From an uncultured Eubacteriales bacterium (lineage in GTDB: Bacteria; Acidobacteriota; Aminicenantia; Aminicenantales; UBA4085): a DNA stretch of 64,000 bases. Made by a program: the position numbers and the translations under genes. Numbering within the stretch: the stretch's first letter is position 1; each line of letters begins with the position of its first letter. The stretch covers positions 6,720 to 70,719 of the forward strand of contig CAZIDN010000007.1 of NCBI GenBank assembly GCA_964537875.1, written 5' to 3'. This document shows, in pieces, positions 12,495-34,404 of this stretch. The notes under the pieces are model-generated. The model saw only the letters and a program-made list of their open reading frames with translations, ran no database searches and was not told where the DNA came from.

Positions 12495-12630
12495 CAATAC
12501 GGGGACAGGTACTTCCGACCTTTTTTTCCAACTCATTGTTTAACAACGAACGGGAATTCATATCAGGACTCTGAGGTTTTTTGAAATAGTTTATTTATCT
12601 TTGGAAGGAAGGATTTCCATATATGTAATT

Positions 12631-12755
12631 TGGATGAGGTGCCGGAATCGCCCCCAGTCCCCTGGGGAACCAGTCCCGTCGGTTCCCCCCGTCGAATAAC
12701 GACGGGGCCCCCCTCCGCTATGGGGACTTTAGGGGCGATTCCGGCACCTCATCCA
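12631..12755. repeat. Family-B structured repeat, copy B1 (core in reverse orientation relative to B2-B4). The outer 23-bp stem is TGGATGAGGTGCCGGAATCGCCC / GGGCGATTCCGGCACCTCATCCA.
   Basis: The core (reverse complement) is CCCCATAGCGGAGGGGGGCCCCGTCG-ttatt-CGACGGGGGGAACCGACGGGACTGGTTCCCCAGGGG. It lies between the last hydrogenase structural gene and the maturation-protease gene. Confidence 0.85.
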
Positions 12756-12859
12756 AACCAAATAAACGGATATGCTTACTTTTTGGGATGCGTCCTGTTT
12801 TTTTACAACAAGAACGCTTAAAATATAGAAGTGAGTTTAGGCTCACGGTATTCGGTTTT

Positions 12860-13390
12860 ATGAAAAAAGATATGTCCTCTCCTCCTGCCGCCTGGAAAGG
12901 CCGGCTCAAGAAGGAAATCCTTTCCGCCCGAAGGATCGTCATCCTGGCCGCGGGAAATCTCACCAAAGGAGATGATGCCGCGGGCATTCAATGCGCCCAA
13001 AAGCTAAAAAAATTGATGGGCGGGAAAGCCCGCTCATGCTTGAAGATTTTGCTCGGCCATGAAACCCCGGAGAATGCCACAGGCGAGATTCGGAAGTTCC
13101 GGCCTGACCTTGTCCTGATCCTCGATGCCGCCCAGGGGGGACATAATCCCGGAACTGTTTTTATCGTTGAGAAAAACCAGATCGAAGATGAAAGCGTCTC
13201 AACACACACAATTTCGTTGGCGTTGCTTGTCGTTTATCTGGAAGAAACAATCGGCTGCAAAGTGATGGTTCTGGGGATTCAGCCCCTCAGCCTAGGCTTA
13301 GGCGAAAAAGTATCGGCCCGGATAATAAAATCTGCCGGGAGCCTCGCTGCTTTTCTTGCCCACGTTTTCACGGATACGAGCCTTAATTAG
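12860..13390 (+). CDS. Hydrogenase maturation endopeptidase (HycI/HyaD family)
   Basis: The motifs ILAAGNLTKGDDAAG, LVLILDAAQGGHNPG and TVFIVE match the metal-binding Asp/His pattern of hydrogenase C-terminal proteases. The ATG at 12860 (MKKDMS) is chosen because the tracked start at 12788 runs into the repeat. Confidence 0.7.
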   Translation: MKKDMSSPPAAWKGRLKKEILSARRIVILAAGNLTKGDDAAGIQCAQKLKKLMGGKARSCLKILLGHETPENATGEIRKFRPDLVLILDAAQGGHNPGTVFIVEKNQIEDESVSTHTISLALLVVYLEETIGCKVMVLGIQPLSLGLGEKVSARIIKSAGSLAAFLAHVFTDTSLN

Positions 13391-13528
13391 AACATTCCCG
13401 CCATATGTACCGCGCAAACCTTCGGTTTTCAATGGTCTTAGACTATGAATTCGCCCGTAGCAGGATCAACCCCGCTCATATGTTCCGGATCGGCCCGACG
13501 ATGACGCCGGCTGCCGCAGAGCATTGAC

Positions 13529-13613
13529 GGGGTCAAAGCTACTTTTTACGCATTATTCTCTCGGGGGGAAAGTGCGTAAAAAGTAGCTTTGACCCCGGAC
13601 TATTGACCCCGGA
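13529..13613. repeat. Family-A palindromic element, copy A3 (GGGGTCAAAGCTACTTTTTACGC / loop / GCGTAAAAAGTAGCTTTGACCCCGGA), plus a tandem partial repeat CTATTGACCCCGGATTTT
   Basis: Same architecture as A1/A2. The inner stem differs at 3 positions and each change is compensated. Confidence 0.85.
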
Positions 13614-13626
13614 TTTTCCCGGATTT

Positions 13627-13911
13627 TTAAGCCCTGATCTCAGCCCTGGCGTAGGCGTATTCCTTGAAAATCTTATCCCGAGACTCATGCTTTGAGCATT
13701 TCATCAAAAGAAGAAAGAGGTCTTCTTTGAGCCTTCTCCAAGCTTCTTCCTTGGTTTTTCCAACAGACCAAAAATCATAGATCGGGCAGTAGCAGAAATA
13801 GTATTTGGTCTGGTTTTTGATCTGTATGGGGGTTGATGGCGTCGCTGTTGCTGAAGTCTTCATAGTCCACCTCATCCAATCATCTTTGGTCGTCTGTTCC
13901 ATATCTCGCAA
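13627..13911 (-). CDS. UPF0150/HicB-like small protein (possible orphan antitoxin-like RNase-H-fold protein). Start codon uncertain; internal ATGs at 13902 and 13863 are alternatives.
   Basis: The segment IQIKNQTKYYFCYCPIYDFWSVGKTKEEAWRRLKEDL fits the UPF0150/HicB N-domain pattern (Y.a.vPe..G....G.T.EEA..n..eal). It lies in a 42% GC islet. No HicA-like partner ORF of at least 60 aa is present. Confidence 0.35.
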   Translation of the reverse strand: MRDMEQTTKDDWMRWTMKTSATATPSTPIQIKNQTKYYFCYCPIYDFWSVGKTKEEAWRRLKEDLFLLLMKCSKHESRDKIFKEYAYARAEIRA

Positions 13912-14063
13912 CTTTTCTTCCTTCCAGGATCATTTTTTCTTTTCCATATATATATACGAAGGCAAGGCCTGTTTTGTTGCCTCGTCTTTGCTAAAAATGA
14001 AAAAAATATGGTGAAGAGGGATGGAAGAGGGAAAGCCCCGTTTGCCGGTAAAATCCCTAGACG

Positions 14064-14132
14064 GGGTCAAACCTACTCGTTACGCATAATTCTCTTGGGG
14101 AGCGTGCGTAACGAGTAGGTTTGACCCCGGAT
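14064..14132. repeat. Family-A palindromic element, copy A2 (nearly identical to A1)
   Basis: GGGGTCAAACCTACTCGTTACGC-ATAATTCTCTTGGGGAGCGT-GCGTAACGAGTAGGTTTGACCCCGGA. Confidence 0.85.
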
Positions 14133-14217
14133 TTCTTATCAAGGAAAAGATATGGAAGGCCTAAGAATCCCCCTTCCCCCCAAACAAAGGCACAGGAGGA
14201 AAGGGGGATTCAACTCT

Positions 14218-15378
14218 CTAGATGATCTCGAGATAGTCCTTGCCGGGCAGCTTCGGGAAGGGCGCGTGCGGTTCGACCTGGTACCAATAGGCAACCGAGG
14301 CGATATCATCCTGGAGGGGCAGGTATCGCCCGCCGGACCTCCAGCCGAGCGCCTGGATCGTCACCTTGAGGTCTTTCTCGAAACGAACCGGGTCCATGAT
14401 GTGCCACCGATAGAGGCCGAAGCGCTGCTCAACATTGTAATGGCCGTCGCCCCGGATGACTTGGGCCAAGCCTGCGTACGGCGTCGTAAACTCGGTGTAG
14501 CGGATAACCCCATCCGGGCCGGGGGCATCGAAATCGTAAGATCCGCAGAAGTAATCCTCGGTCCCGGTTCCGGCGATCGTCGGAAAATCCGTGTCGCCGT
14601 CGAGGAAGAACTTGATTTCTCCCTCGCCCCACCAGCCGTTGTTGTTGACGCCCCAGGCCATATAGGTGCCGACATAGTGGCCCCAGCCTTTGACGCCGTC
14701 AAGGAGCGTATAGACGTTCTTATACGGCACCGGATTGACGCGCCGGAACTGGGCATGGAAGTAGCCGGCATCCTCGGGCACCTCAGTCAGGGTGTAATTG
14801 ATCTGGTAGTAAATCGTGAAATTTTCCTCGGCCATGTTTTCCAGGGTAACCTTGAAGGACTTGCGGAAAGGCATCTGCCAGTAAGAGTTGAAAGCCCGGC
14901 CCGGGTTGACGCAGACCGGAAGGGACGAGATTTGGGCGTACTTTCCCCAGCCGCAGGCGAAGAAATCGCCGATCGGAGCTTCGATCGAGGGCTCCTTTTC
15001 GCCGTCCCAATAGAATCGCAGGATGGCAAAGCGCCAGGTGCCGGACGGAGTCATCCAGATCTGTTGGATGGCGCCCATGCCCTGAACGTCGGCCAGGACG
15101 AACGTCTCTTTCGGCTTGATCACGACATAGGGTGACACCTTCCAGCCCTGGCCCAGGTCGCGTGCGGACTTCAGGGCCGGCCCGTCCGTCGACATGCCGG
15201 CCTTGCCTTTTTCGCCCGTGAAATTCTCCGGGCTGATCGACCGCGTCTTAGCATGAGACAGCCGGGAGAGGTTCCCCAGGTCAAGATAGAGTCCATCAAA
15301 CGGTTTTTTTTCCTGGGCGGCGTAAAGAACGATCCCCGCCAGCAGAACGACTGCCAATTTAACAACAGCTTTCTTCAT
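14218..15378 (-). CDS. DUF2961 / GH172-family glycoside hydrolase, secreted
   Basis: A signal peptide (MKKAVVKLAVVLLAGIVLYA) follows a perfect AGGAGG Shine-Dalgarno. The WGEGEIKFFLDGD and GTGTEDYF motifs are characteristic of DUF2961. Confidence 0.6.
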   Translation of the reverse strand: MKKAVVKLAVVLLAGIVLYAAQEKKPFDGLYLDLGNLSRLSHAKTRSISPENFTGEKGKAGMSTDGPALKSARDLGQGWKVSPYVVIKPKETFVLADVQGMGAIQQIWMTPSGTWRFAILRFYWDGEKEPSIEAPIGDFFACGWGKYAQISSLPVCVNPGRAFNSYWQMPFRKSFKVTLENMAEENFTIYYQINYTLTEVPEDAGYFHAQFRRVNPVPYKNVYTLLDGVKGWGHYVGTYMAWGVNNNGWWGEGEIKFFLDGDTDFPTIAGTGTEDYFCGSYDFDAPGPDGVIRYTEFTTPYAGLAQVIRGDGHYNVEQRFGLYRWHIMDPVRFEKDLKVTIQALGWRSGGRYLPLQDDIASVAYWYQVEPHAPFPKLPGKDYLEII

Positions 15379-15620
15379 AAAAACCTCCTTCCGAAATCGT
15401 TGATTTGATTTATATTTGCCGCGTCGAAAAAAGTCAAGCTTCTTCCTAGGTATCCAAAGCTGCCGATAATAGGAACGCACCAACCACGGTCTCTGAGCCT
15501 TCCATCAAAGCGCAACGAAGTGCCGACGCCCGACGGTGATTCTATCCGCGCATCTGGCTCAACAGAGGCTCGATAAAATCCGAAAATTATCGGATAATAG
15601 TCGCAAACGCCGGAGGATCC

Positions 15621-16592
15621 ATGGAACGACATCCCAAAAATCCGATATTGACCCGTAAGGATATTCCCGACATCCCTCCCCTGCTGACCGACGCCACATC
15701 GGTCTTCAATCCGGGCGCCGTCAAGTTCGGCGGCAAATATCTTCTCATGCTCCGCGTTCAGAGCCGCTCGCGCGAAACGTTTTTCTTGATGGCCGAGAGC
15801 CAGGATGGCGTGAAATTCACTGTCACCCGTGATCTCGTGGAACTCAAGGGAATCGAGAAGGTCAAAGAAAAAATCTACCATGTCTACGACGCCCGTATCA
15901 CTCAAATCGAAGGGGCTTACTACATCATGTTCGCCATGGATATGGACAGCGGCTGCCAGCTCGGCCTGGCTAAAACAGCCGATTTCCGCAGCTTCGATTT
16001 TCTTGGGATCACATCGACGGACGACGTCCGGAACGGCGTGCTCTTCCCGGAAAAAGTGGGCGGTAAGTATCTCCGGATGGAAAGGCCCAACAAAGCGCGC
16101 CTCGAAGGCGGTCCGACGACCGGCAGCACAATATGGCTGTCCGAATCCGAGGATCTCATCCATTGGAAAGAGCGCGCCCCACTGATTAGCGGCCGATTTC
16201 ATTACTGGGACGAATTTATCGGTTCCGGGCCGCCGCCCGTAAAAACACGAAGCGGCTGGCTTCATATCTACCACGGCGTAGCCACCCATTTCGGAAGCGC
16301 CAACATCTATCAGGCGGGCGTGATGCTGATGGACCTCCATGACCCGGCCAAAGTCATCGGCCGGTGCAGAGGAAATATCCTTGAGCCGCGTGAGTTGTAT
16401 GAGCTTGCCGGCCAGGTCCCCAACGTCGTTTTTCCCAGCGGGATGATCGTTGAGAAATTCGATCAGGCTGGATTCGCGATCCCTGAAAGTCCAGTGAAGG
16501 TTTATTACGGCGCCGCCGACACTACCGTCTGCCTGGCTACAACGACCATTCGGGAACTGCTTGCCGCCGCCCATGAATCGCCGATAATGTGA
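15621..16592 (+). CDS. GH130 family glycoside phosphorylase (beta-mannoside phosphorylase-like)
   Basis: The N-terminal NPILTRKDIP...VFNPGAVKFGGKYLLMLRV and the five-bladed propeller signatures of GH130 are present. Confidence 0.75.
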   Translation: MERHPKNPILTRKDIPDIPPLLTDATSVFNPGAVKFGGKYLLMLRVQSRSRETFFLMAESQDGVKFTVTRDLVELKGIEKVKEKIYHVYDARITQIEGAYYIMFAMDMDSGCQLGLAKTADFRSFDFLGITSTDDVRNGVLFPEKVGGKYLRMERPNKARLEGGPTTGSTIWLSESEDLIHWKERAPLISGRFHYWDEFIGSGPPPVKTRSGWLHIYHGVATHFGSANIYQAGVMLMDLHDPAKVIGRCRGNILEPRELYELAGQVPNVVFPSGMIVEKFDQAGFAIPESPVKVYYGAADTTVCLATTTIRELLAAAHESPIM

Positions 16593-16608
16593 TTGGCGGG
16601 ATCTTGGC

Positions 16609-16687
16609 GGGGTCAAGCCTCAACATTCAACATAATCTCTTTGGACTCACTCTTTATTCTTCTTGTTGAATGTTGAGGTTTGACCCC
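16609..16687. repeat. Family-A element, divergent copy A4. Conserved ends GGGGTCAA/TTGACCCC; unrelated 16-bp inner stem GCCTCAACATTCAACA/TGTTGAATGTTGAGGT; 31-nt loop containing TAATCTCTTTGG.
   Basis: Seen directly in the sequence. It lies immediately 3' of the GH130 gene and 5' of the Fur-family promoter. Confidence 0.7.
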
Positions 16688-16696
16688 GTTTTTCTC

Positions 16697-16745
16697 TTGA
16701 CAAGGACCCATAGTTTGTATAGAATCCAATTTGTAATGATTACAA
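16697..16745 (+). promoter_or_regulatory. Sigma70-type promoter TTGACA(16697-16702)-17nt-TAGAAT(16720-16725), plus the perfect 7-1-7 palindrome TTGTAATGATTACAA (16731-16745) that resembles a PerR/Fur box
   Basis: The palindrome spans the predicted +1 and the ATG (16736) of the Fur-family gene. It matches the PerR-box consensus TTATAATnATTATAA at 13 of 15 positions. Confidence 0.45.
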
Positions 16746-17188
16746 ATAAGGCATTGCTCAAAGACCGGCTCATGAGCAAGGGCATCAAGCCCACCTACCA
16801 GAGGACCGCCATTCTCGGCTTCCTCTTGGATAACAGAATCCACCCCACGATCAAATCCCTGCACCACAGCCTGGTCAAGACCATCCCCACCCTCTCCAAG
16901 ACAACCCTGTACTCGACCCTCGAACTGTTTGCGGCGAAAGGGCTGGTTGCTCCCTTAACCATTGATCGTTCCGAGGTCCGCTATGACGGTCTGGCCTCGT
17001 CCCATCATCATTTTTTCTGCGAGCGCTGCGGCCGGATCATTGACCTCGATGTCTCCTGCGCCAACAGCCGGCGGGGCGAGATCGAGGGACACCGGATCAA
17101 GGAAGTCCATGGCTATTTCAAGGGCATCTGTAAAGACTGCTTGAAGCAAACATATAAAACCAATAAAAGGAGAATTTTTCATGCCTAA
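16736..17188 (+). CDS. Fur-family metalloregulator, probably PerR-type peroxide sensor
   Basis: Shows the [13 protein letters not shown]-binding helix, an HHHF motif, and the CERCG...CKDC structural Zn site. It lies directly upstream of dfx and rbr. The start is placed at the ATG at 16736 (MITNKALL...), giving the normal ~18-aa lead before the TxQR helix and a leaderless mRNA. Confidence 0.75.
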
Positions 17189-17564
17189 CGTTTCAAAACG
17201 CCTGCAGGTATTCCGCTGCGCAGTCTGCGGCAACATCGTCGAAGTAATGCGCGTTGGCGCCGGCGAGCTGGTCTGCTGCGGCCAGCCGATGACGCTACTT
17301 GTCGAAAACACAGTGGATGCATCCAAGGAAAAGCATGTCCCGGTGATCGAGAAGACCGCGGACGGCGTCAAGGTCAAAATCGGCAGCGTTCCCCATCCTA
17401 TGGAGGAAAAGCATTACATCCAGTGGATCGAGCTCATCGTCGATGACAAGACCTACATCGCCTTCCTGAAGCCCGGCCAGGCGCCCGAAGCCTCATTCTG
17501 CGTAAAGGGCACGGCCATGACGGCCAGGGAATACTGCAACTTGCATGGCCTTTGGAAATCATAA
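17181..17564 (+). CDS. dfx: Desulfoferrodoxin (2Fe superoxide reductase)
   Basis: The N-terminal desulforedoxin site [10 protein letters not shown]...CCG and the C-terminal SOR site ([28 protein letters not shown]) are both present. Confidence 0.85.
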
Positions 17565-17582
17565 AGAATAAAGGAGTTACCC

Positions 17583-18161
17583 ATGGCAAAATCCACCAAA
17601 GGAACTAAGACCGAGAAAAATCTTTTAGCCTCTTTCGCCGGCGAATCCCAAGCGCGGAATCGTTACACGTATTTTTCAAGCGTCGCCCGGAAAGCCGGCT
17701 TCGAGCAAATTTCCGCGATCTTTCTGGAGACCGCTGAAAACGAGAGAGAGCATGCCAAGCGGTTCTTCAAGCTGCTGGAAGGCGGAGATCTAGAAATCGT
17801 GGCCGCCTACCCGGCCGGCGTCATCGGCGACACCGCCGCCAACCTAGAGGCCGCTGCCGCCGGCGAACATCTGGAATGGACCAAACTCTACAAGGAAGCC
17901 GGAGAAGTCGCGGCCAAGGAAGGATTCCCGGAAATCGCCAAGCAGTTTCAGGAGATCTCCGAAGTCGAAGCCGAGCATGAGAAGCGCTACCGCAAGCTCT
18001 TGAAGAATGTCAGAGAGGGCAAAGTCTTCAAGAAGGACACGGTTGTCAAGTGGAAATGCCGGAACTGCGGCTATGTCTCTGAAGGAATTGAGGCGCCGAC
18101 GAAGTGCCCGGCCTGCGACCACGCCCAGGCGTTCTACGAGCTGATGGCGGAAAATTACTGA
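17583..18161 (+). CDS. rbr: Rubrerythrin
   Basis: The diiron motifs ENEREHAKRF and EVEAEHEKRY and the C-terminal rubredoxin-like CRNCGY...CPACDH are present. Confidence 0.85.
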   Translation: MAKSTKGTKTEKNLLASFAGESQARNRYTYFSSVARKAGFEQISAIFLETAENEREHAKRFFKLLEGGDLEIVAAYPAGVIGDTAANLEAAAAGEHLEWTKLYKEAGEVAAKEGFPEIAKQFQEISEVEAEHEKRYRKLLKNVREGKVFKKDTVVKWKCRNCGYVSEGIEAPTKCPACDHAQAFYELMAENY

Positions 18162-18179
18162 AAACGCAGATATCCTTGT

Positions 18180-19172
18180 TTATATGATTTGGGGCCGGAT
18201 GACGCGGGCGCCACGGTTCGTGAGTTCGGAGACCAGCGTATCGTACATCTCCTGGCCCTTGTAGATTCCGAGAATCGACCCGCCGGACCCGGCGAACTTG
18301 GCCGAGGCGCCCAAACGGCGGGCGGTTTCGATCATTTCTATGTTGCCCGGATGGATATTCATGATCTTGCGCCGAAGGTCGAAATTCTTGTTCATCATGT
18401 CGAACAATGCTTCCCTGTCTCCGGCGAGCATAGCCGCTTTTCCCATCTCGGCGAGGCCGGCGATCTGCCGCAGCGTTTCGATGACAAACGCATCTCCCCT
18501 CTCGTGACGAATCCGGATATCGTTCAGGACCTTGCCTGAGACCTTCCCGAGCGACGGTTTGTATGCCAAGTAAAGGTCCGGCAGAAGCTGCGGATTGAGT
18601 CGCTCATAAATACCGTAGCCCTTTTCTTTGATCATCGCTTCAGGGAGGTCCATATAGACACAGCCCTCATAGACCTGGGTTACCCTGTCCATAAAACCGG
18701 CGCTTATGTCCAGCTCATCCCGTTCCGCGCTCAGGATGAGGGAAGGCTGGATATGGATCGGAATCTCGACTCCGTAGAATTTCATCAGAGCCCGGAGGGT
18801 CGCCGTGACGATGGCGCTCGAACCTCCCAGCCCGACTTGCCGGGGAATCGTCGATTCATAGCGGATGGTGAAGTTCTGTCCTTGAAGAGGGATGTCCTGG
18901 CTCCGGCAGTATTCGTAAAATTTCTTCAGCGCCGCTTTGATTAAACGGACACCACCGTAATACCCGTAGAGGCCCACGGACTCGGCCAGTTCCTGGAGAC
19001 TTCCGTACGCTTCCCTGTCCTCGGCTCGAAGCTCGATCCGGAGTTGTGCGGATTTTTCAAGGATGCAGCGGGCGGCAAAATTTTTGACAGAAATAGCGAT
19101 GATCTTCCCGAAATAGCCGTCCGATGGATTTCCCAGGATGCCCGCCCGCGCGTAAGCAACGCCTTCAATCAT
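18180..19172 (-). CDS. GHMP-family sugar kinase (specific substrate not determinable)
   Basis: The GHMP ATP-binding motif PRQVGLGGSSAIVTA is present. Total length is 330 aa. Confidence 0.6.
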   Translation of the reverse strand: MIEGVAYARAGILGNPSDGYFGKIIAISVKNFAARCILEKSAQLRIELRAEDREAYGSLQELAESVGLYGYYGGVRLIKAALKKFYEYCRSQDIPLQGQNFTIRYESTIPRQVGLGGSSAIVTATLRALMKFYGVEIPIHIQPSLILSAERDELDISAGFMDRVTQVYEGCVYMDLPEAMIKEKGYGIYERLNPQLLPDLYLAYKPSLGKVSGKVLNDIRIRHERGDAFVIETLRQIAGLAEMGKAAMLAGDREALFDMMNKNFDLRRKIMNIHPGNIEMIETARRLGASAKFAGSGGSILGIYKGQEMYDTLVSELTNRGARVIRPQII

Positions 19173-20035
19173 GCTTTTGCCCCGTCGATCGCGGCCAATG
19201 CGCCTCGGATATAGCCGATGGATTCGGCGGCGCCGGGAAGAGGATCTTTTTCGTCCTTCTCATATTCCAGGCTGACCGTCCCGGCATAGCCCAGCTTTAT
19301 CAGCGTCCTTAAAAACTTGGGGATATCGATCACGCCCCGTCCGACCTCAATGGCTCCCCCTTCGGCCGAGGAGGCCGTGACGTCCTTGATATGGACGTCG
19401 AGCAGGCGGTCGAAAAACTGCTCGGCCGCCGCCGCCGGGTCCACGGCACTGCGCTGGGTATGACCGATATCCAGGCATAGGCCGATTCGCGGATCGAGCT
19501 CCTTGATCTTCTCGACAATGCTCTCAGGCGTTGGGTAGAGCTTGTCCGACGGGCCATGGTTGTGGATTGCCATCCGGATGTCGTACTCCTGCACTTTTTT
19601 ATGGACCAAGCCCAGCAACTCGTGGTTCGGAACGCCGACGATGATCTGCATGCCGGCAGCTTTGGCATAATCAAAGGCTTGCTGCACTTCCTGCTCATTC
19701 TTCATATAGATCACACCGCCTGCGTAGGGATCGAGACCGGCCGTTTTGACTTTCGTCACCGCCGCCTGGATGGCCTCGGCGGTGCTGTCGAGCGGCAGAT
19801 GGAAACTTTTAAAGGAGATCCTCTCCAGTCCCAGCCGTTTTGTGAAGATGAGCGTCTCGTCCAGGCCGAAGGCTCGAAAAGTGTATGAAGCCATGCCGAG
19901 CTCGAATTTTGGCGCGGCCTTGGGGATTTCTTGGCGGCTTTTCTCAGGCGAAGTCCGGACCATAGTCGCGCACGACGGCGCGGCCAGAGTAATTCCTAAG
20001 GCTTTTAGGAAATGCCTTCGCGATGTTTTTTTCAT
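19169..20035 (-). CDS. Xylose-isomerase-like TIM-barrel protein (sugar phosphate isomerase/epimerase family), TAT-secreted
   Basis: A twin-arginine signal (SRRHFLKALGITLAAPS) is present. The AP-endonuclease-2/XylA-like barrel motifs ...MAIHNHG...CLDIGH... are present. Confidence 0.65.
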   Translation of the reverse strand: MKKTSRRHFLKALGITLAAPSCATMVRTSPEKSRQEIPKAAPKFELGMASYTFRAFGLDETLIFTKRLGLERISFKSFHLPLDSTAEAIQAAVTKVKTAGLDPYAGGVIYMKNEQEVQQAFDYAKAAGMQIIVGVPNHELLGLVHKKVQEYDIRMAIHNHGPSDKLYPTPESIVEKIKELDPRIGLCLDIGHTQRSAVDPAAAAEQFFDRLLDVHIKDVTASSAEGGAIEVGRGVIDIPKFLRTLIKLGYAGTVSLEYEKDEKDPLPGAAESIGYIRGALAAIDGAKA

Positions 20036-20149
20036 ATCTCTGTCCCTCGGTTCAAATCGCCTTCACTGGCTTGGGCTTTTTGATGCTTTTTATATATACA
20101 CTAAAAAAAGAGCCGATTCCAGCGGACGCAGAAAGCAGGTCAATTTGTG

Positions 20150-20286
20150 TGATTTCAAAGAAGCGTGGCAGTTGCCCCTGAGGCCCCCATAGCGGAGGGG
20201 GGCCCCGTCGGTTTGTCGACGGGGGGAACCGACGGGACTGGTTCCCCAGGGGGCAAGGGGGCAACTGCCACGCTTCTTTGAAATCA
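20150..20286. repeat. Family-B structured repeat, copy B2. A 30-bp perfect outer stem TGATTTCAAAGAAGCGTGGCAGTTGCCCCT / AGGGGGCAACTGCCACGCTTCTTTGAAATCA encloses the conserved core.
   Basis: It sits in the divergent intergenic region between the TIM-barrel gene and the DUF1080 gene. Confidence 0.85.
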
Positions 20287-20366
20287 TATATTTGGGGAGG
20301 CTTTCGGGAACCATTGCCGACAGTTGAAATTTTCGGCCGGGTTTGTCATGATGACCGTGAAGGAGA

Positions 20367-21176: not shown

Positions 21177-21188
21177 GAAGGACGACGG

Positions 21189-22094: not shown

Positions 22095-22218
22095 GATCAA
22101 AACTCCCGCCCCTATTCCTATCATATTCTATCCCGCATTGACAACCTTCTCTGCTCATGTTTTAATTCTAGTTGAAAGAAGAGACCAAGCCGCGCCGTCT
22201 AAAAGATGAGGACGACCG

Positions 22219-24150: not shown

Positions 24151-24251
24151 TAGCAGGGCCGGGTCAACTTTAGATTCAATGAGAGGGATTGCCGGAACAG
24201 GTTCTCCGAACTCTTGTCATAGATCGTGACTTCCCGATAGTTGTAAACCAG

Positions 24252-27614
<3,363 letters not shown>

Positions 27615-27835
27615 GACAATCTCCTTTAAGCATTTTTCCCTGATAGAGATAGGAGCCCGTCATTCCGAGAAGCGAAGCGACGCGGCAATCTCATTGGGAA
27701 TATTATATAAAGAAAGGCAAAAAAATCCATTCTTTATCTATGACGAAATCTAGAATTGAAAAGTTCACCTTGGGGGCGTCAAGAACTCCGGGTTATGCGA
27801 AATCGCAGCGAATTCTCGTGGAAGCACCCAAACAA

Positions 27836-27973
27836 GTGATTTTCTATCGGTACCGCAATCGCCCCCAAGGCCCCATAGCGGAGGGGGGCCCCCGTCGGCT
27901 TTTCGACGGGGGGAACCGACGGGACTGGTTCCCCAGGGGCCGGGGGGCGATTGCGGTACCGATAGAAAATCAC
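27836..27973. repeat. Family-B structured repeat, copy B3. A 31-bp perfect outer stem GTGATTTTCTATCGGTACCGCAATCGCCCCC / GGGGGCGATTGCGGTACCGATAGAAAATCAC encloses the conserved core.
   Basis: It sits in the divergent intergenic region between the tricorn-like and M48 genes. Confidence 0.85.
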
Positions 27974-28061
27974 ACAGGCGGATATGCTTACGAGTCCCTC
28001 TTTCAACTTGCCAACACGGCTGTGTTCTCTTACTATAGGGAGACGGTAGCCGGAGACCGAC

Positions 28062-29804
28062 ATGGAACAACGAGCCTTGAAGCGAAACCTGGCCCGGGAC
28101 TTTTACGAGATCCAAAAACAGCAGTCCAGGAAAAGTCAGGGGATCCTGGCCGTCCTCGTTGTTTTTTATTTCCTGGCCGTCAGCCTGATCGCGTTCACCA
28201 TCTGGCTGAGCACGGGCTTGATTCTGGCCAGGGCCCCTCTCTTCACCGGCGCCTTCTGGACAAAATTCCTCCTTACGTGTTTCGGCGCAGCCGTCATCTT
28301 CGCCATCCTGCATTATTATGATGCCCGGAAGTTTGGCGCCTCATTCATCCTCAGGAGGCTGTGCGCCCAAGAGCCGGACCGGTCCGACCGCTATCACCTG
28401 CAGTTCATCAATGCCGTGGAGGAGATGCAAATCGCCAGCGGGCTGCCCAAGGTCAAGCCCTCGATCCTTCCCACATTTGCCATCAATTCGCTGGCCCTTA
28501 TCGAATCTGACAAGACTCCCTGCGTCGTCGTGACCGAGGGGCTCCTGGCGGATTTCACAAGGGACGAGCTGGAGGCCGTCGTCGCCCATGAACTGGCCCA
28601 CATTGCCCGGGGCGACACACTGTATATGACCCTGGTCTGCTCGCTGGCCAATTTTTTTGAGCGCATCAGGGAAGCCTTAGAGCCCGGGGATACGGACTCG
28701 GGAGAATTCGCCGAAACCCGGGGCGACAGGCGCCATCCTTCATCCCTGGTCTATGTGGCGGTGGCCATTTCGACGATGGTGATGCGTCTTCTCAGCATGT
28801 TGATCAGCCGGCAACGCGAGCTCCTGGCGGACGCTGCCGCCGTCGAATTCAGCCGAAATCCTGTAGCCTTAGCCCGGGCTATCTACAAAGCTCATGTCAA
28901 AAATTCGTTTGTCGGAGATTTCAACCAGACCTACAGCCCGCTGTTCATCGTCGCCCCGGACGCCCACAGTGAATCCGAGGACTTCCTGAGCCGCCTGATC
29001 AGCACTCATCCGCCGCTCATGACGCGCATCGGGCACCTGGCTCAAATGGCCGGCCTGACCCCAGCGGCCGTCATCGATCAGGTGCGGGACATTCAAAAAG
29101 AGAGAGAAAAAGCGAAAATCGTCCTTCATGCCTTTGAGGAAACGCATCAAGGAGCCGTCCTGCCGGCTCCCGATCCCTCGATCTTGTCGGCTCTTGCCCA
29201 AGACAAGGTCTGGCTGATCCTTTCTCCCAAGCAACAATGGCAGGGGCCCTATTCCCTTCAGGACCTCCTCTTTCTCCCGAACTTCACGCCGCTCGTCCTC
29301 ATCAAAAATATCCAGGAAGGCGTCGAAGCCCGGGCCCGACAATTCCCCCAGATCCGGACCGCCCTGGAAAAGCTGGCCCGCAAAAAGCCGGTCAACGAAG
29401 CCGTCCTCAACAAATGCCCGCGCTGCAAGATCCCCTTGACCGATACCTTCTACGAGGGCGTCCCGGTGAAGATCTGCAGCCGGTGTTCCGGGAAGCTTGT
29501 CGACCAGGCCGCCATGGAGCGTATTCTCGACCGCCAGGAGGTCGGATTCTCCGAGGATCTGGCCAAGAAGGCACAGGAATTCAAGGAAAAATTCTTGCTC
29601 AACCCGATCAAAACGCAGAAAATATCGGCCAAGGAGCAGCCCAATTCATACTGTCCGAATTGCGGCTACAAAATGACGCCTCGACCTTACAACTACCAGT
29701 ATTTCATCCCGGTGGATAAATGTCTCTCCTGCTTCAAGGTCTGGTACGATGCCGACGAGCTCGAAATCCTTCAGGTTCTCGTCGAGAAGGCCAAAGCCGG
29801 CTGA
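28062..29804 (+). CDS. M48-family (HtpX-like) zinc metalloprotease with N-terminal TM helices and two C-terminal zf-TFIIB-type zinc ribbons
   Basis: The HELAHIARGD (HExxH) motif lies after TM helices. The C-terminal CPRC...CSRCSGKLVDQAAMERIL and CPNC...CLSCFKVWYDADELEILQ each match the CPxC...CxxCgGvWlDagEL ribbon pattern. Confidence 0.65.
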   Translation: MEQRALKRNLARDFYEIQKQQSRKSQGILAVLVVFYFLAVSLIAFTIWLSTGLILARAPLFTGAFWTKFLLTCFGAAVIFAILHYYDARKFGASFILRRLCAQEPDRSDRYHLQFINAVEEMQIASGLPKVKPSILPTFAINSLALIESDKTPCVVVTEGLLADFTRDELEAVVAHELAHIARGDTLYMTLVCSLANFFERIREALEPGDTDSGEFAETRGDRRHPSSLVYVAVAISTMVMRLLSMLISRQRELLADAAAVEFSRNPVALARAIYKAHVKNSFVGDFNQTYSPLFIVAPDAHSESEDFLSRLISTHPPLMTRIGHLAQMAGLTPAAVIDQVRDIQKEREKAKIVLHAFEETHQGAVLPAPDPSILSALAQDKVWLILSPKQQWQGPYSLQDLLFLPNFTPLVLIKNIQEGVEARARQFPQIRTALEKLARKKPVNEAVLNKCPRCKIPLTDTFYEGVPVKICSRCSGKLVDQAAMERILDRQEVGFSEDLAKKAQEFKEKFLLNPIKTQKISAKEQPNSYCPNCGYKMTPRPYNYQYFIPVDKCLSCFKVWYDADELEILQVLVEKAKAG

Positions 29805-29807
29805 GGC

Positions 29808-30530
29808 TCAATCGAATATCTTCTCCAGGGCTTGATACTTGGTGTGGAGCGTGTCCACGCCTTTTTCCATGCCGGCATGGTCGTGGGCTTGACCGGCGGC
29901 ATCGAGAGCCTTGGCCGCGTCCAAAAGCTCAGCCGCCGCCGTCTTAAAAGCTCCGGCCTTGGCTTCTAGCCTTGTTGGAAGAGTCGTTTTGGTGACGGCC
30001 TCCGCTTTACCCACGAGGTCCGCGCCGGCGCCCCGGATCTTGTCGTATTCCTTGTTGGGCAGGTATTTGTGATAGACGACATATAGAACCTGATGGAAAG
30101 CATCCATCTCTTTGAGGACCGGTCTGAGAGTCCTGACCAGGGATTCATACTTGGCATGGAGCGCCTCGGCCGCGTTTAGAAGGGCCTGGTCATCCTTGCC
30201 GGCTGCGGCGGCATTGTAGTCGTCAACAGACTTTTCGAGCTGGGCCACGCCCTCTTTCCACTTGGCTTCCTTTTCGCGAAGGATTCCGGGCAGCTTAGCA
30301 CCGTAAATTTTGGCCGCCAGCTCATTGATCTGGGGGACGAAGCTGCGCAATGCCTTATAATCTTTATCCGGATAGGCCGTGTGCCAGATTGGATAGATCA
30401 CGTCATGGAAAGCGGTCAGCTCGGGCACCTCGCTCTTGGTTTCGGCCGATTGCTCCTGGGCCACCGCCCAGGCGCTCACGCCGCAGACCAGCATCATCAG
30501 GCCAAACAGGCTTAAAATTCTCTTATGCAT
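29808..30530 (-). CDS. Secreted protein of unknown function with an internal tandem duplication
   Basis: A signal peptide is present. The two halves are similar (FHDVIYPIWHTAYPDKDYKAL... versus FHQVLYVVYHKYLPNKEYDKI...). Confidence 0.4.
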   Translation of the reverse strand: MHKRILSLFGLMMLVCGVSAWAVAQEQSAETKSEVPELTAFHDVIYPIWHTAYPDKDYKALRSFVPQINELAAKIYGAKLPGILREKEAKWKEGVAQLEKSVDDYNAAAAGKDDQALLNAAEALHAKYESLVRTLRPVLKEMDAFHQVLYVVYHKYLPNKEYDKIRGAGADLVGKAEAVTKTTLPTRLEAKAGAFKTAAAELLDAAKALDAAGQAHDHAGMEKGVDTLHTKYQALEKIFD

Positions 30531-30605
30531 GAAAACCTCCAGAATAAGGAAATAATGAGCTACCTATTATGATCAACTTTCAGAAATTTTCAAGCTCTTG
30601 ATCGG

Positions 30606-31691
30606 CTATAAAATCGATTTTTTTCTTTCCAAATAATACAGGTAATTCTCAAAAGTGACATCCGGGGGGACGCGGTGGTCCACCGTGGGGATAAATCCGC
30701 CTTTGGCGATGAGCGGAACGAGCCCCTCCAACTCACGATCAATCGCCTCGCGGCCCCGGATGAGGCTCAGCTTGTTGACGCCGCCCAGAAGCAGGACCCG
30801 GTCGCCGTAGATCTCCCGCAATTCGAAGGGATCTGTGTGCAGCGCTTCGATAGGAAACATGACGTTGATTCCTGCTTCAAGCCAGCCGGGAACGAGCTCG
30901 TAGATCCGGCCGTCGCAGTCGAGGACATTGAGGTCGATCCCAAGCTTCTTTAGCGCCGCCGTCACCCGCTTATAGCGAGGGACCATCATTTCCTGAAAGA
31001 GCTTGGGGGAAAGGAGAGGGCCGTGGTTGTAGCACATGTCCTCCCACCACCAGCCGACGTCAATTCCGTTCTCCGGAAATCCTTTCTCTATGAGATAGAG
31101 TGTCATCTCCGTGAGATGCTCCATCATCTCTTCGACCCAGGGCCGATCTTCCATAACGGCGATCGAAAAATTCTCGAGCCCCATCCAGTTCCGCGGCCAG
31201 CCGTAGAGAGACCCGGGATCGAAAATGACGAGCGTCCCGGACGCCCGGGCTTCGTCGACGGCTTTTTTGACATCGCCGATACGGCCGGGATTCTTATAAT
31301 CCAGATACTCACGTTTCACCCGCTCCCAATCCTGCCGGCTCTCGATGATATACTTGAGAAACTTCGGCATGGTGCCGCGCCCAGGGGGAACTTCGCAGAG
31401 GTTACCGTCCTCATCCTGCATCAGCAGGCGGTCGCCCAAATCCTTGATGACTTTTTTTTCAAAGGCCGGAAACAGGCCGTTTTTGATGGGCACTTTCGTG
31501 AAAATGGAAACCCCCTCCAGGCCCAAATATCTTTCCACGGCCTCGTTGTCGTGAATGTTCAGCGGCAGCCCCTGCCTGTGCCAAGCTTCGATCGTCTCGT
31601 CCCAGTAGCCGAACTCCAGGTTGGGCAGCCGGTCGGGCGCTTGCCAATGAAAGACCCGCAGAAACCGCTCCCGCGTCGTCATCGGCTTCAT
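30606..31691 (-). CDS. Uroporphyrinogen-decarboxylase (URO-D/MtaA)-like family protein
   Basis: The N-terminal MTTRERFLRVFHWQAPDRLPNLEF matches the family signature (M..rER....DRvPv). The TIM-barrel length fits. Confidence 0.5.
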   Translation of the reverse strand: MKPMTTRERFLRVFHWQAPDRLPNLEFGYWDETIEAWHRQGLPLNIHDNEAVERYLGLEGVSIFTKVPIKNGLFPAFEKKVIKDLGDRLLMQDEDGNLCEVPPGRGTMPKFLKYIIESRQDWERVKREYLDYKNPGRIGDVKKAVDEARASGTLVIFDPGSLYGWPRNWMGLENFSIAVMEDRPWVEEMMEHLTEMTLYLIEKGFPENGIDVGWWWEDMCYNHGPLLSPKLFQEMMVPRYKRVTAALKKLGIDLNVLDCDGRIYELVPGWLEAGINVMFPIEALHTDPFELREIYGDRVLLLGGVNKLSLIRGREAIDRELEGLVPLIAKGGFIPTVDHRVPPDVTFENYLYYLERKKSIL

Positions 31692-34180
31692 GGACCCGGC
31701 TTTCTCGCGACCTTGATCGTTTTGATCTCGAAGGGCTCGAAGGAAAGGCCGATGGTCGTTCCTGCCGCCTCGATTTTTTTGACCGGCCGCTCGATCAGGT
31801 CCGTCTCCCAGGCATCCACGGGCCAGGGCAACTCGATCTTTGCCTCTGTCTTTTTGCCGAAGGCTTCATAGAACCGCAGGATCAAGCCGCGGTTGTAATA
31901 GCCCATTTCTTTTTTGAGCGCGGAAAGGATGATGTTGTCGGGCCCGACGTTGACGAACGACCGGCTTGCCGGAAGCGGCCCGGGGTGGGCCATGGCCACT
32001 CTCGGCATGAGCGGGCTGTTGAATTCATAGCCGCGGCGGACGGTCAGGGCGTCTTTCCATGTGCCGCGATGAGGATAGAGGGAATAAAGGAGTTCGTGAG
32101 GCCCCCGGTCGGCTTCCGGATCCGGGTTTGTGGCGCCGTGTATGACCGAAAGCCTGAGTGTTCCGTTCTTCACATCAAACCCGTATTTGCAGTCGTTCAG
32201 CAGGCTGACTCCATAGGCGCCGGACTCATCGCTCAGGTCGACCCAGCGGAGGGCCGGCACTTCCCGGCCGTCGGCAGGCCTGGAAATAGACCCGAAAGGA
32301 ATCTCGAAATCCGCTTTGTCATTTTTCAGGTTGAGCGGGAAGGCCGCCTTGACCATGACGTTCCTCTCCTGCCAGTTCAGACCCAGCCGAAAATCAAGCC
32401 GCGGAATCTTGCTGTAAAGGATGATGTCCTGGCTGAACGCAGAATTCCGAAAAAGACTTTTGACCCGAACCACGGCCCGCACCGGCCCTGCTTCAAGGAC
32501 CTCAACCTTGGCCCCCTCTTCTCCGATATTCCAGGATTGATCTTTCAAGCCAAGCTCCCAGGCGGACATGTTTTCGGGCTCATCCACGATCGCCTGCAGG
32601 ACGTTGCCCCGCCCCTGCAAGATTTCCCGGTTATTGACCTTATCGAAAATGCTCTCCAGCCAGCCCGTAGACGGGTTCAAGCGGACTTTGAAGAATTCGT
32701 TCTCGAGCGAGTCGGCGGCGGCGGTTAAAGCCGATTTGAATTCGGGCGCCTTATCCATACCCGTGACCCGGTACAGTTTATAGCCGAAGGACGGGACGCT
32801 CTCGGCGATAAACACGACTCTGAAGCGATTCTGCGGTCCTTTGTCGTCTTTCAAGACGACTTGAAACGGGATCTCCGTTCCCTGTTCATCCAGGATCTTG
32901 AAGCCGTTGAATTTTTTCATTAGATAGAATTCGGCGACAACGGGCTCCGTCCTCTCCCAAAACAGCGGATTGTACACTACCAGCGGCAGGCCCTCGCCCC
33001 TCGTGTCGATGCTGTTGGAGACCGCCTCCAAGGAAAAATTGAGAGCCCGCCGTCCCCTCTCAAAAACTTGTTGATAGAATTCCTTCACCTCATCATAGAC
33101 GGGTCCGATGCTCGAACCGTCCAGGATGTCATGGAATTGATTTCGAAGCACGATCTTCCAGGCTTCATCCAGGTCCCTTTCCGGGTAATAATCTCTGTAG
33201 CCGCCCGCCGCAGCCAGAGCCGAAAATTTTTCTGCCGTTAGCAACAGGGCTTCCGATTTTCTGTTGTTCTTCTTTGTCAGGGCTTGGGTCGTGTAGCAGG
33301 CCGGGAAGGTGAAATTCAGCTCGTTCGCAAAAACGGGGATTTCCAGTTTCTTGGTTTCGAGGAGCTTGAAATAATCGTCGGGCCCGGCGAACTTCATCCG
33401 GGGTTGGGCTTTGTCCTTTTTGAACTTCTTGATGGCCTCAACGTCCGAATCTCTGGGCCCGCCGCCGTGGTCGCCTTCTCCGTAGAGAAGCAGATAATCC
33501 ATGAGCGGCGAAACCTTGGCCGCCTCAAAAATCACGTCTTTCGTCCCATTCTTGAGGTTTGCCAGATACCAGCCCGGCGGGACATAAGCCAAGACCTTCG
33601 ACCCGTCCATGCCCTGCCACTGGAAGAGGTGCGTCTTTTCCGGGGCACATCGCTCGAAGATGTAATATTTAAGGCCGGCTTTGGCCATGATCTGCGGCAG
33701 CTGCCAATTGTGTCCGAACGAATCCGGATTCCAGCCGACCTTGACGTCCACGCCGAACTTGTCCAGGAAATATCTCTTCCCATAGAGAAGCTGCCTGGCC
33801 AGCGACTCGCCGTCGGGCATGTTCAAATCCGGCTCGACCCACATGCCTCCTACCGGAAGCCAGGTGCCTTCCTTGACTTTGGCCTGAATGGCCTTGAATA
33901 AATCGGGATAGCTTTTTTCGACGGCCTCATAGACGGCGGCCTGGCTCTGGGCAAATGTCAAGCCGGGCATCTTGTCCATCTGGGCCAGGGTTCCTTTGAA
34001 CGTTTGGACGGCGACATCATGGACGGTCTCTTCCCATCGCCAGAGCCAGCTCAGGTCGATATGGGCGTGGCCGATGAGATGAGCCGTAAAATCGCGCGGA
34101 TTTTTTTCCTGGGCAAAATTGGCCGAGCCCAGAAACAACGTTAAGAGGCCTATCAAAAGAATTTTGTGGATGCTTCGCAT
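31688..34180 (-). CDS. GH38 alpha-mannosidase, secreted
   Basis: A signal peptide is present. The GH38 catalytic-domain motifs HIDLSWLW, GGMWVEPDLNMP and WNPDSFGH are present. Confidence 0.8.
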   Translation of the reverse strand: MRSIHKILLIGLLTLFLGSANFAQEKNPRDFTAHLIGHAHIDLSWLWRWEETVHDVAVQTFKGTLAQMDKMPGLTFAQSQAAVYEAVEKSYPDLFKAIQAKVKEGTWLPVGGMWVEPDLNMPDGESLARQLLYGKRYFLDKFGVDVKVGWNPDSFGHNWQLPQIMAKAGLKYYIFERCAPEKTHLFQWQGMDGSKVLAYVPPGWYLANLKNGTKDVIFEAAKVSPLMDYLLLYGEGDHGGGPRDSDVEAIKKFKKDKAQPRMKFAGPDDYFKLLETKKLEIPVFANELNFTFPACYTTQALTKKNNRKSEALLLTAEKFSALAAAGGYRDYYPERDLDEAWKIVLRNQFHDILDGSSIGPVYDEVKEFYQQVFERGRRALNFSLEAVSNSIDTRGEGLPLVVYNPLFWERTEPVVAEFYLMKKFNGFKILDEQGTEIPFQVVLKDDKGPQNRFRVVFIAESVPSFGYKLYRVTGMDKAPEFKSALTAAADSLENEFFKVRLNPSTGWLESIFDKVNNREILQGRGNVLQAIVDEPENMSAWELGLKDQSWNIGEEGAKVEVLEAGPVRAVVRVKSLFRNSAFSQDIILYSKIPRLDFRLGLNWQERNVMVKAAFPLNLKNDKADFEIPFGSISRPADGREVPALRWVDLSDESGAYGVSLLNDCKYGFDVKNGTLRLSVIHGATNPDPEADRGPHELLYSLYPHRGTWKDALTVRRGYEFNSPLMPRVAMAHPGPLPASRSFVNVGPDNIILSALKKEMGYYNRGLILRFYEAFGKKTEAKIELPWPVDAWETDLIERPVKKIEAAGTTIGLSFEPFEIKTIKVARKPGP

Positions 34181-34245
34181 AATTTCTCCTCCCTGGACAA
34201 CCTCGAGACTAATATCAGCGTAATAATTAAAATGACATCCCCGTT

Positions 34246-34373
34246 GGGGGCGGCGCTTAGGCCGTCCTAAAGCCCCCGTAGCGGAGGGGGGACCCGTCGG
34301 CTTTTCCGACGGGGGGAACCGACGGGACTGGTTCCCCGGGGCCCGGGGGCTATGGGCGGCCTAAGCGCCGCCC
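34246..34373. repeat. Family-B structured repeat, copy B4. The imperfect 19-bp outer stem GGGGGCGGCGCTTAGGCCG / CGGCCTAAGCGCCGCCCAT encloses the core, which carries one variant (GTAGCGG instead of ATAGCGG).
   Basis: It lies between the GH38 gene start and the 3' end of the beta-barrel gene. Confidence 0.8.
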
Positions 34374-34404
34374 ATACATTGTCACTTTATTTATCGCGTT
34401 AATA

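Follow-up and report, generated by a model that had tools for sequence, protein, structure and literature searches.

Family-B repeats of Aminicenantes as probable foldback transposable elements around a conserved centre

What kind of repeat keeps its interior nearly constant from copy to copy and yet encloses it each time in a long palindrome of different sequence? The question is raised by a 64,000-nt stretch of contig CAZIDN010000007.1 (positions 6,720–70,719, assembly GCA_964537875.1; the whole stretch is called the window here) from an uncultured bacterium of the Aminicenantia, in which an earlier note, made from the letters alone, had picked out four copies, B1–B4, of a repeat that it called family B. 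It had offered two explanations: (a) a structured RNA or DNA element selected for its closing helix, such as a ribozyme-, retron- or attC-like fold, or (b) a mobile core that inserts into palindromes or makes inverted duplications of its flanks. [quoted passage not shown] Each copy is a discrete 172–194 bp insertion in which long inverted-repeat arms surround an asymmetric conserved centre, and the seemingly copy-specific stems are the elements' own arms. Foldback MITEs are a known kind of element; it is the centre that sets family B apart.

Discrete insertions with their own arms

The 21-mer GGAACCGACGGGACTGGTTCC occurs exactly four times in the window when up to three mismatches are allowed, and not at all in dinucleotide shuffles. 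A covariance model of the centre, run with filters off over the whole 64 kb, likewise finds only B1–B4 (next match, E = 0.95). The copies lie essentially where the earlier note had placed them, 6.4–7.7 kb apart and with one of them inverted, which agrees with its dismissal of a CRISPR array, where spacing is a regular 25–50 bp. Their GC-rich centres of ~75 nt are 91–97% identical; the claimed identity of at least 95% holds among B1–B3 (96–97%) and is slightly high for comparisons with B4 (91–94%). The features, with subfamilies and helices named as in the text below, are:

21-mer GGAACCGACGGGACTGGTTCC: 12666–12686 (minus strand) and 20225–20245, 27912–27932 and 34315–34335 (plus strand), exact in all four copies
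B1, whole element: 12607–12779, minus strand, 173 bp, alpha backbone, termini GGAAGGATTTCC... / ...GGATATGCTTAC
B1, left arm: 12629–12654 (partner 12732–12757), perfect 26-bp inverted repeat
B1, conserved centre: 12655–12731, minus strand, with P2, J strand, P3 and P4
B1, putative 9-bp target duplication: left TCTTTGGAA at 12598–12606, right TTTTTGGGA at 12780–12788, 7/9 match
B2, whole element: 20131–20305, plus strand, ~175 bp, alpha backbone, right terminus degraded
B2, left arm: 20150–20178 (partner 20258–20286), perfect 29-bp inverted repeat, L-type block CAAAGAAG on both arms
B2, conserved centre: 20179–20257, plus strand
B3, whole element: 27820–27991, plus strand, 172 bp, alpha backbone, termini GGAAGCACCC... 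/ ...GGATATGCTTAC
B3, left arm: 27836–27866 (partner 27943–27973), perfect 31-bp inverted repeat, R-type block CTATCGG on both arms
B3, J strand: 27875–27888, plus strand, ATAGCGGAGGGGGG, a near-invariant single-stranded motif
B3, P3 hairpin: 27890–27911, plus strand, CCCCGTCG-GCTTTT-CGACGGGG, a variable, covarying helix
B3, P4 hairpin: 27912–27932, plus strand, GGAACC-GACGGGACT-GGTTCC
B4, whole element: 34212–34405, plus strand, 194 bp, delta backbone, terminal inverted repeats (TIRs) ATATCAGCGTAATAA / TTATCGCGTTAATAT
B4, left arm: 34248–34264 (partner 34357–34373), perfect 17-bp inverted repeat with imperfect extension to the element ends
B4, conserved centre: 34265–34356, plus strand, including the internal loop, P2 and an extra G-run
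B4, TA target-site duplication: left 34210–34211, right 34406–34407, the target being TA within the stop codon (TAG) of a mipA-like gene

Self-complementary arms were found in all 97 copies examined across genomes (median 30 paired positions), and the stems described for the window are present, perfect over 26, 29 and 31 bp in B1–B3 and over 17 bp, with an imperfect continuation, in B4. They are not 'totally unrelated', as had been claimed. The stems of B1, B2 and B3 are diverged homologues, as in GGTGCCGGAATCGCCCC versus GGTACCGCAATCGCCCC, where both differences are compensated in the other arm, and all four copies extend outward beyond the stems as first delimited into conserved termini. These termini define two backbones. 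The first belongs to the alpha and beta subfamilies (alpha members: B1, B2, B3 and the fetched loci L003, L010, L032, L055, L070 and L071) and has the ends GGAAGCATCTCC... and ...AAACGGAGATGCTTAC, with GGAAGCATCTCC / GGAGATGCTTAC at both ends in 12 copies. The second is common to the gamma, delta and epsilon subfamilies (delta members: B4, L028, L008 and L068) and has the ends ATAC(G/A)AACGCAATAA... / ...TTATTGCGTT(C/T)GTAT, both present in 19 copies. In their inner ~20 bp (G.GC.C.GGA.GCCGCCC) the arms of all subfamilies are homologous, so that the same centre, with homologous inner arms, is carried by both backbones. The delta/gamma terminus motif was met 42 times in the fetched loci (~0.73 Mb), 41 times no more than 220 nt from a core, and arms and centre therefore form one unit; two Aminicenantes loci, L066 and L108, have short inner arms only and no recognisable termini. 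The elements have no coding capacity of their own, open reading frames (ORFs) through them being spurious or those of host genes. For B3 the predicted folding energy is -116 kcal/mol (z = -11.4) for one strand and -111 kcal/mol (z = -10.8) for its complement.

Comparison of occupied and empty sites shows what was inserted. Empty sites for B4 were taken from contigs carrying orthologues of the adjacent mipA-like protein and those for B1 from contigs carrying HycI orthologues, and whether an orthologous site holds an element varies from relative to relative. The closest relatives at the B4 locus (L241–L243, 89% protein identity) read ...GGAATAT-TA-GGATCCGAG... (junction GGAATAT-TA-GGATCC), and the occupied site reads ...GGAATAT-TA-(ATATTAACGCGATAA...194 bp...TTATTACGCTGATAT)-TA-GTCTCGAGG... 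(right flank GTCTCG). B4 sits in the TAG stop codon of the mipA-like gene (34405–34407), which is remade as TAA from the duplicated TA and the element's first base. Among the 19 copies of this backbone with both termini, 189–212 bp long, TA stands on both sides in 14, and the reconstructed targets are TTAG (seven), CTAG (six) and CTAA (one). This is the signature of IS630/Tc1-mariner transposition, that is, insertion at the TA of YTAG with duplication of TA; IS630 and ISY100 elements insert at TA and duplicate it (PMC2170065). At the B1 locus the orthologous spacers in L116 and L118 are short and without an element, L118 having a single CCTTGGAA followed by TGCATCC, and L113 and L115, whose neighbouring proteins are 84% identical, carry an alpha element at the same junction in the same orientation. 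Direct repeats of 9 bp also flank other alpha/beta copies (a perfect CCTGACACC in L102, 8/9 in L051, 7/9 in L012), with a mean direct-repeat score of 1.83 against 0.55 +/- 0.38 for mismatched flanks. No palindrome is present at either empty site (B1 locus, L116/L118; B4 locus, L241–L243). The earlier note had set the repeats apart from classical MITEs and had named simple insertion with ordinary direct target duplications as the outcome that would count against its reading; that is the outcome seen on comparison with the relatives (TA for B4, an imperfect ~9 bp for B1), and the shared TIRs lie outside the stems that it had delimited. The two backbones carry the same centre but differ in termini and in duplication length, which implies two different transposases.

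How, then, do the arms stay perfect? Alpha arms carry one of two alternative blocks, L-type CAAAGAGG or R-type CTATCGG. One block of each type is found in L003, L032, L055 and L071, leaving an internal mismatch, and both arms carry the L-type in B2, L010 and L070 and the R-type in B3; whole blocks have therefore been copied from arm to arm. This pattern points to intrastrand template switching or gene conversion within the hairpin, not to base-by-base compensatory selection, and such copying explains why the orthologous copies B1 and L113 differ at ~30% of arm positions and yet are each self-complementary.

The centre can also be reversed relative to the arms. In 14 copies an asymmetric bulge, AACGGAGATG, is found on the 3' side of the core; in five, among them B4 and B1, whose core is flipped relative to the arm asymmetry of B3, its reverse complement is on the 5' side. 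The relative L244 carries an element at the same TA as B4; its outer arms fit the same orientation better (82% versus 75%; 76% versus 64%), and its centre, from which P3 is deleted, is oriented the opposite way. These cases suggest that rare recombination between the arms inverts the centre. It would not be a fast switch, because B1 and L113/L115 have kept one orientation.

We can thus propose a history for the family. Alpha/beta elements such as B1–B3 insert with a ~9-bp target duplication, and gamma/delta/epsilon elements such as B4 at the TA of YTAG with duplication of TA. The arms would then drift nearly neutrally, their complementarity being restored by repeated re-copying of one arm from the other, through intrastrand template switching or gene conversion within the hairpin, and occasional recombination between arms may invert the centre in place. 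The centre itself would be either a cis module that the element needs for its spread or a structured RNA made by read-through transcription.

Several further rearrangements were seen within copies. Some family-B centres enclose, in or next to P3, another small palindromic element, whose ends are ACTCTTGGAGG.../...CCTCCAAGAGT (L103:~225–345; the same position in L017 and L038; L113/L114/L115:~1160–1390; a short form in L245). It recurs at P3 in either orientation, and so appears to target these centres. L031:3048–3353, from Candidatus Saccharicenans subterraneus, holds three tandem units with a period of ~106 nt, of which the two upstream ones have a damaged P4 (GGAACCGACGGGACTTCTTCC) and no 3' arm, as from local tandem duplication of a copy. 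At L114:~1080–1470 the shared centre connects a left arm of delta type with a right arm of alpha type, and the gene on the left flank is unlike that of L113; either two copies have recombined ectopically or the contig is a chimera assembled at the repeat.

The conserved centre

The layout of the centre was read from 109 copies aligned to the model. Outermost is an inner closing helix, CCC/GGG, followed by a small internal loop and by helix P2, in which GCCCCC pairs with the second 3' G-run (CCCAG/CTGGG in Patescibacteria). A single-stranded junction strand, J, with the consensus RUAGCGGARGGGGG, leads to hairpins P3 and P4, the latter GGAACC-GACGGGACU-GGUUCC, and a return strand, CC-GGGG(U), completes the unit. 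We infer a three-way junction of closing helix, J strand, variable P3 and P4. The earlier note had seen two 8-bp hairpins; both are present, P3 with 8 bp and P4 with 6 bp.

Its suggestion of a conserved structured module with covarying helices is borne out. In 108 distinct copies 92.5% of cells are paired, compared with 80.4% in shuffles, and 18 of the 24 pairs are changed on both sides. The covariation score of 0.26, versus 0.079, was reached by none of 500 shuffles, and sliding the 3' partner lowers pairing to 39–59%. The alignment was fitted to the covariance model and so leans towards the structure, and a plain MAFFT alignment pointed in the same direction; RNAalifold on the MAFFT alignment, in which the arms were misaligned, recovered P4 only and was replaced by a hand-specified structure with covariance-model realignment. 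P3 occurs as CCCGTCG/CGACGGG, CCCATCG/CGATGGG, CCCAGC/GCTGGG, CCCATAAC/GTTATGGG and CTGTAC/GTACAG. A single-sequence minimum-free-energy fold brings P3's 5' strand together with the CGACGGG of the P4 loop; it was rejected because these variants fail to preserve that pairing. The centre also contains the G-runs for which the earlier note had considered a G-quadruplex, all but one or two of them paired with C-runs in the supported fold.

The constraint appears to act on one strand. Pairing in P3, counted over 80 distinct sequences, comprises 580 Watson-Crick pairs, 13 G.U pairs on the core strand and two on the opposite strand. The ratio of core-strand G.U to A.C mismatches is 13:2 in P3, 74:34 over all helices and 133:72 in the arms, counts that are not independent, as they come from related copies, the P3 events falling at several positions and in several subfamilies. 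Most positions of the J strand, whose conservation is independent of the 21-mer used to find copies, are at least 93% conserved in the 109 copies, the exceptions being the two R positions (G/A) and the last G (~84%). P4 is invariant in the set, but it is the search key, and copies found through the J motif have one to three uncompensated P4 changes. In orthologues (B1/L113 and B4/L244) the J strand and P4 are nearly identical and the arms have diverged by ~20–30%. Old copies do decay: P3 is lost in L244 and L098, and L245 has many substitutions (~six in P4).

The interior is thus the most conserved part of the element, being common to two backbones and to Patescibacteria hairpins, near-unchanged in orthologues and strand-biased in its wobble pairs. 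It is most likely under sequence- and strand-specific constraint, acting as a single strand, which would make it either a cis module needed for spread or a read-through structured RNA; homogenisation by gene conversion between copies is a further possible cause of its conservation. No Rfam family matches at gathering thresholds over the 64 kb, which supports the earlier note on this point, and at E values up to 10 only long-hairpin miRNA models and noise appear, all far under their cut-offs. Resemblances to 5S rRNA and tmRNA were dropped because no Rfam model scored, and a tRNA/tmRNA search found none. A conserved, covarying three-way-junction centre without an Rfam match is real and unusual.

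Distribution, neighbours and rival explanations

A 21-mer search of one genome per species, the counts from which are lower bounds, found more than 112 element loci, nearly all in Candidatus Aminicenantes metagenome-assembled genomes (MAGs), including Saccharicenans. Some element-bearing bins are labelled Eubacteriales or Clostridiales and hold the same subfamilies. Among the matches listed there are at least 5–10 copies per MAG, and copies within one genome are 85–91% identical over ~220 nt. The centre also occurs in at least five Patescibacteria MAGs (Yanofskybacteria, Woykebacteria and three 'Patescibacteria group' bins), as hairpins of 105–115 nt with arms unrelated to the Aminicenantes ones. 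The GC content of these loci is 34–44%, so they are not mis-binned Aminicenantes DNA. In one of them, L094:~274–431 of MAG contig JBBTYS010000040.1, the unit lies in frame inside uvrC as 52 codons without a stop, with P3 enlarged, between the GIY-YIG region and the conserved GPF motif; it is the sole in-gene case seen. The 21-mer is absent from IMG/VR viral contigs, and a blastn search with B4 against plasmids and phages gave no match. A metagenome scan with the Patescibacteria-type J motif AGTAGTGGAAGGGG listed 120 matches, none with P4-like sequence downstream, and this 14-mer is thus too short for that collection. A literature search (the sequence motif; Aminicenantes and repeats) returned nothing relevant.

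All four window copies are intergenic, in the gene context that the earlier note had described. B1 lies between the gene for a ferredoxin-type hydrogenase subunit and the maturation gene hycI, B2 and B3 each lie between divergent genes, and B4 separates the stop codon of the mipA-like gene from the start of a GH38 gene. Flanking genes in the census are arranged in about equal numbers as convergent (21), tandem-antisense (18), divergent (17) and tandem-sense (15, +2) pairs, a tally made with a filter on GC at third codon positions (GC3) against spurious ORFs through the GC-rich element. Element orientation shows no bias with respect to local GC skew, our test for a replication-strand preference. 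Clustering of neighbouring ORFs in search of a transposase, reverse transcriptase or recombinase returned housekeeping families only, the largest at 8 of 112 loci (seven largest clusters inspected), and no neighbouring gene family is enriched or recurrent around the copies. With random gene arrangement, no skew bias and no recurrent neighbours, the elements behave as selfish DNA.

As for transcription, no promoter or terminator reads into the core in or next to B1 and B4, the two copies scanned. B1 lies behind a terminator-like hairpin (12500–12517) that is conserved in the window and in L113, L115, L116, L118 and L119. The B4 terminus at 34379–34406 contains an outward-facing sigma-70-like match, TTGTCA-16-AATATT, and the same class of terminal sequence ends all gamma/delta/epsilon copies, which might thus serve as sources of outward promoters in the manner of Correia elements. 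Insertions recur in the spacer that separates hycI from the hydrogenase ferredoxin-subunit gene (12495–12860; L113, L115, L116, L118, L119), a hot spot for them. L116 and L118 have none there; the window has B1, L113 and L115 have a family-B copy with the nested element, and L119 has an unrelated palindromic element with 22-bp arms, GGGAAACGATCCGGAGACGGCC.

Several observations weigh against the MITE explanation. The ~0.73 Mb of fetched loci yielded neither an autonomous element nor a transposase with matching ends, and the link between the MITEs and a transposase is therefore drawn from the target duplications alone. At the B4 locus the closest relative (89%) is empty and more distant ones (83% and 70%) are occupied at the same TA, which requires either precise loss or repeated insertion at one TA. 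In-place inversion rests on one orthologous pair with nearly palindromic arms, and the strand bias in wobble pairs is drawn from related copies whose counts are not independent. The Patescibacteria copies lack an obvious target duplication or shared termini. A transposase that binds terminal repeats needs no conserved centre, and classical MITE biology fails to explain one that is found in two backbones and two phyla.

Could the centre and its closing helix then be primarily a functional structured RNA (a self-cleaving ribozyme, a protein- or ligand-binding RNA or a small RNA), with the transposon only its vehicle? We regard this as unlikely, with an appreciable residual chance, and it is compatible with the MITE reading. 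Covariation of P1, P2 and P3 fits such an RNA, as do the one-sided wobble pairs, the near-invariant single-stranded J motif, the recurrence of the centre with unrelated arms in a second phylum and the retention of J and P4 in orthologues with diverged arms. The random orientation to flanking genes does not, so the element does not behave as a 5'-untranslated-region or terminator element; nor do the lack of promoter- or terminator-like signals into the core of B1 and B4, the terminator-like hairpin before B1, the empty Rfam search, the decay of orthologous copies (P3 deleted in L244, ~six P4 substitutions in L245, a nested element in L113) or the fact that P4 changes are only of the uncompensated kind in copies not chosen by the 21-mer. 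Explanation (a) of the earlier note thus stands as a possible, unproven reading of the centre as a free-standing structured RNA. Under its explanation (b) the ~75-nt core would itself be mobile, targeting the centres of pre-existing palindromes or making inverted duplications of its flanks. The presence of the centre on at least two backbones and in unrelated Patescibacteria hairpins would suit this, as would L066 and L108 with their short inner arms, but it is largely refuted and we give it very little credence: both empty sites lack a palindrome and received a whole arm-plus-core unit, the terminus motif is almost never without a core (41/42 linked), the flank duplications are direct, not inverted, and the arms are homologous between copies and genomes, so they were not made from local flanking DNA.

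Two kinds of dedicated enzyme were also considered. An inverton would be a phase-variable switch, its centre turned round between the inverted repeats by a dedicated recombinase so as to control genes nearby; we find this highly improbable. Both centre-to-arm orientations exist (14 versus 5), one orthologous pair (B4/L244) differs, and B2 and B3 have divergent genes on either side; yet B1 and L113/L115 share an orientation even though their neighbouring proteins are only 84% identical, no recombinase is among the recurrent neighbour families (seven largest clusters inspected), promoter-like sequence is absent from the GC-rich centre of B1 and of B4, the two copies scanned, and a segment of 76–92 bp is very short for synapsis of the invertase type. 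Equally doubtful is movement as repetitive extragenic palindromic (REP) or REPIN-type repeats by a RAYT (Y1 HUH) transposase recognising a GTAG tag and hairpins on single-stranded DNA. Target duplications and TIRs are present here, and to our knowledge REPs and IS200/IS605-type elements make no target duplications. The J strand does begin with GTAG or ATAG, CGTC occurs in P3, mismatches are biased by strand, and one copy lies in uvrC as REPs lie in uvrA, uvrB and uvrD (PMC3733652). The GTAG, however, belongs to the junction strand instead of marking a hairpin's foot, unit length is 170–195 bp as against 20–40 bp, there is no bias to gene 3' ends or replication strand, and no Y1 transposase gene is among the recurrent neighbour families (seven largest clusters inspected).

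Non-autonomous foldback elements thus remain our preferred explanation for the family. For the ~100-nt centre we would put forward, as a tentative and on balance unlikely idea, that it represents a structured single-stranded element of a class not yet described (either a recognition module of single-stranded DNA or an RNA, which might be catalytic or bind a factor) persisting in Aminicenantes and Patescibacteria on at least two unrelated transposon backbones and in simple hairpins. If true, it would be a selfish module spread by transposons and not their by-product. As an RNA it would offer a candidate new structured class with hundreds of natural variants for covariation analysis; as a DNA module it would imply a host or transposase factor, as yet unknown, common to very different bacteria. 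A MITE interior more conserved than its ends, and common to two backbones and two phyla, falls outside the usual picture. Family B is also the first repeat family described for Aminicenantes, an abundant uncultured sediment lineage, and it provides a clean natural example of long palindromes kept perfect without selection, in which block conversion can be read from two alternative blocks. On the practical side, the repeats break assemblies (many copies are at contig ends) and can create chimeric contigs, as L114 may show.

The window holds other repeats. A second family, 'Family A' (1563–1635, 13526–13599 and 14060–14132), consists of ~70-nt palindromes, GGGGTCAAACCTACTCGTTACGC...GCGTAACGAGTAGGTTTGACCCC, that are 83–91% identical. 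Between 41347 and 46934 there are eight copies of a 36-nt motif, most of them 366–381 nt apart, in DNA of 49–51% GC as against ~56%; the stretch has the look of a gene whose product contains tandem repeats of ~125 aa.

Comparison with known systems

Integron attC sites, which accompany cassettes and IntI, show the reverse pattern of conservation, with conserved outer R/L boxes and a variable centre, and retron non-coding RNAs lie beside a reverse transcriptase gene; the four window copies are flanked by hydrogenase, glycosidase and protease genes, so attC sites and retron non-coding RNAs were both set aside. In shape alone, family B resembles the inverted terminal repeats of parvoviruses such as adeno-associated virus (AAV), which are T-shaped hairpins with flip and flop forms: a long stem encloses two small hairpins, and both orientations of the centre occur. 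Unlike AAV repeats, family-B copies are internal chromosomal insertions, with no Rep gene seen and a stable orientation in the B1 orthologues.

REPs are defined as palindromes of 20–40 nt with GTAG/CGTC at the foot and a Y1 transposase, and they are known from uvrA, uvrB and uvrD genes (PMC3733652); Rickettsia palindromic elements (RPEs) occur in many genes (PMC2229807). The uvrC copy of the Patescibacteria MAG, 52 codons long, is similar in being a palindromic repeat in frame in a conserved gene. It differs in being a single such case without sequence similarity to these repeats, and the copies in the window are all intergenic.

The B4 backbone resembles the IS630/Tc1-mariner elements (IS630, ISY100) in insertion at, and duplication of, TA, with the targets TTAG, CTAG and CTAA. 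Reportedly, by the title of a 1991 study by Tenzen and Ohtsubo, IS630 transposes preferentially to the TA in 5'-CTAG-3'. Unlike IS630 elements, family B has no transposase gene, and the likeness is one of target duplication, not of compared termini; three of the four window copies have the other backbone, with its ~9-bp duplication, which is unlike the IS630 family.

The closest parallels are the MITEs Correia/NEMIS of Neisseria, ERIC/IRU of enterobacteria and RUP of Streptococcus pneumoniae, which have TIRs, terminal TA, long stem-loops and some in-frame gene fusions (PMC2229807). Like the B4 backbone these are non-coding, 100–200 bp long and bounded by TIRs. The gamma/delta/epsilon backbone further shares with them TA at both termini from duplication, a stem-loop of the whole element, intergenic dispersal in either orientation, size variants that carry internal insertions and an occasional in-frame fusion. 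Family B differs in having no known cognate insertion sequence and in a centre that is branched (three-way) and not a simple hairpin. In Correia, ERIC and RUP it is the termini that are conserved and the interior that varies, whereas in family B the interior is the conserved part, shared with a second backbone of ~9-bp duplication and with the hairpins of another phylum.

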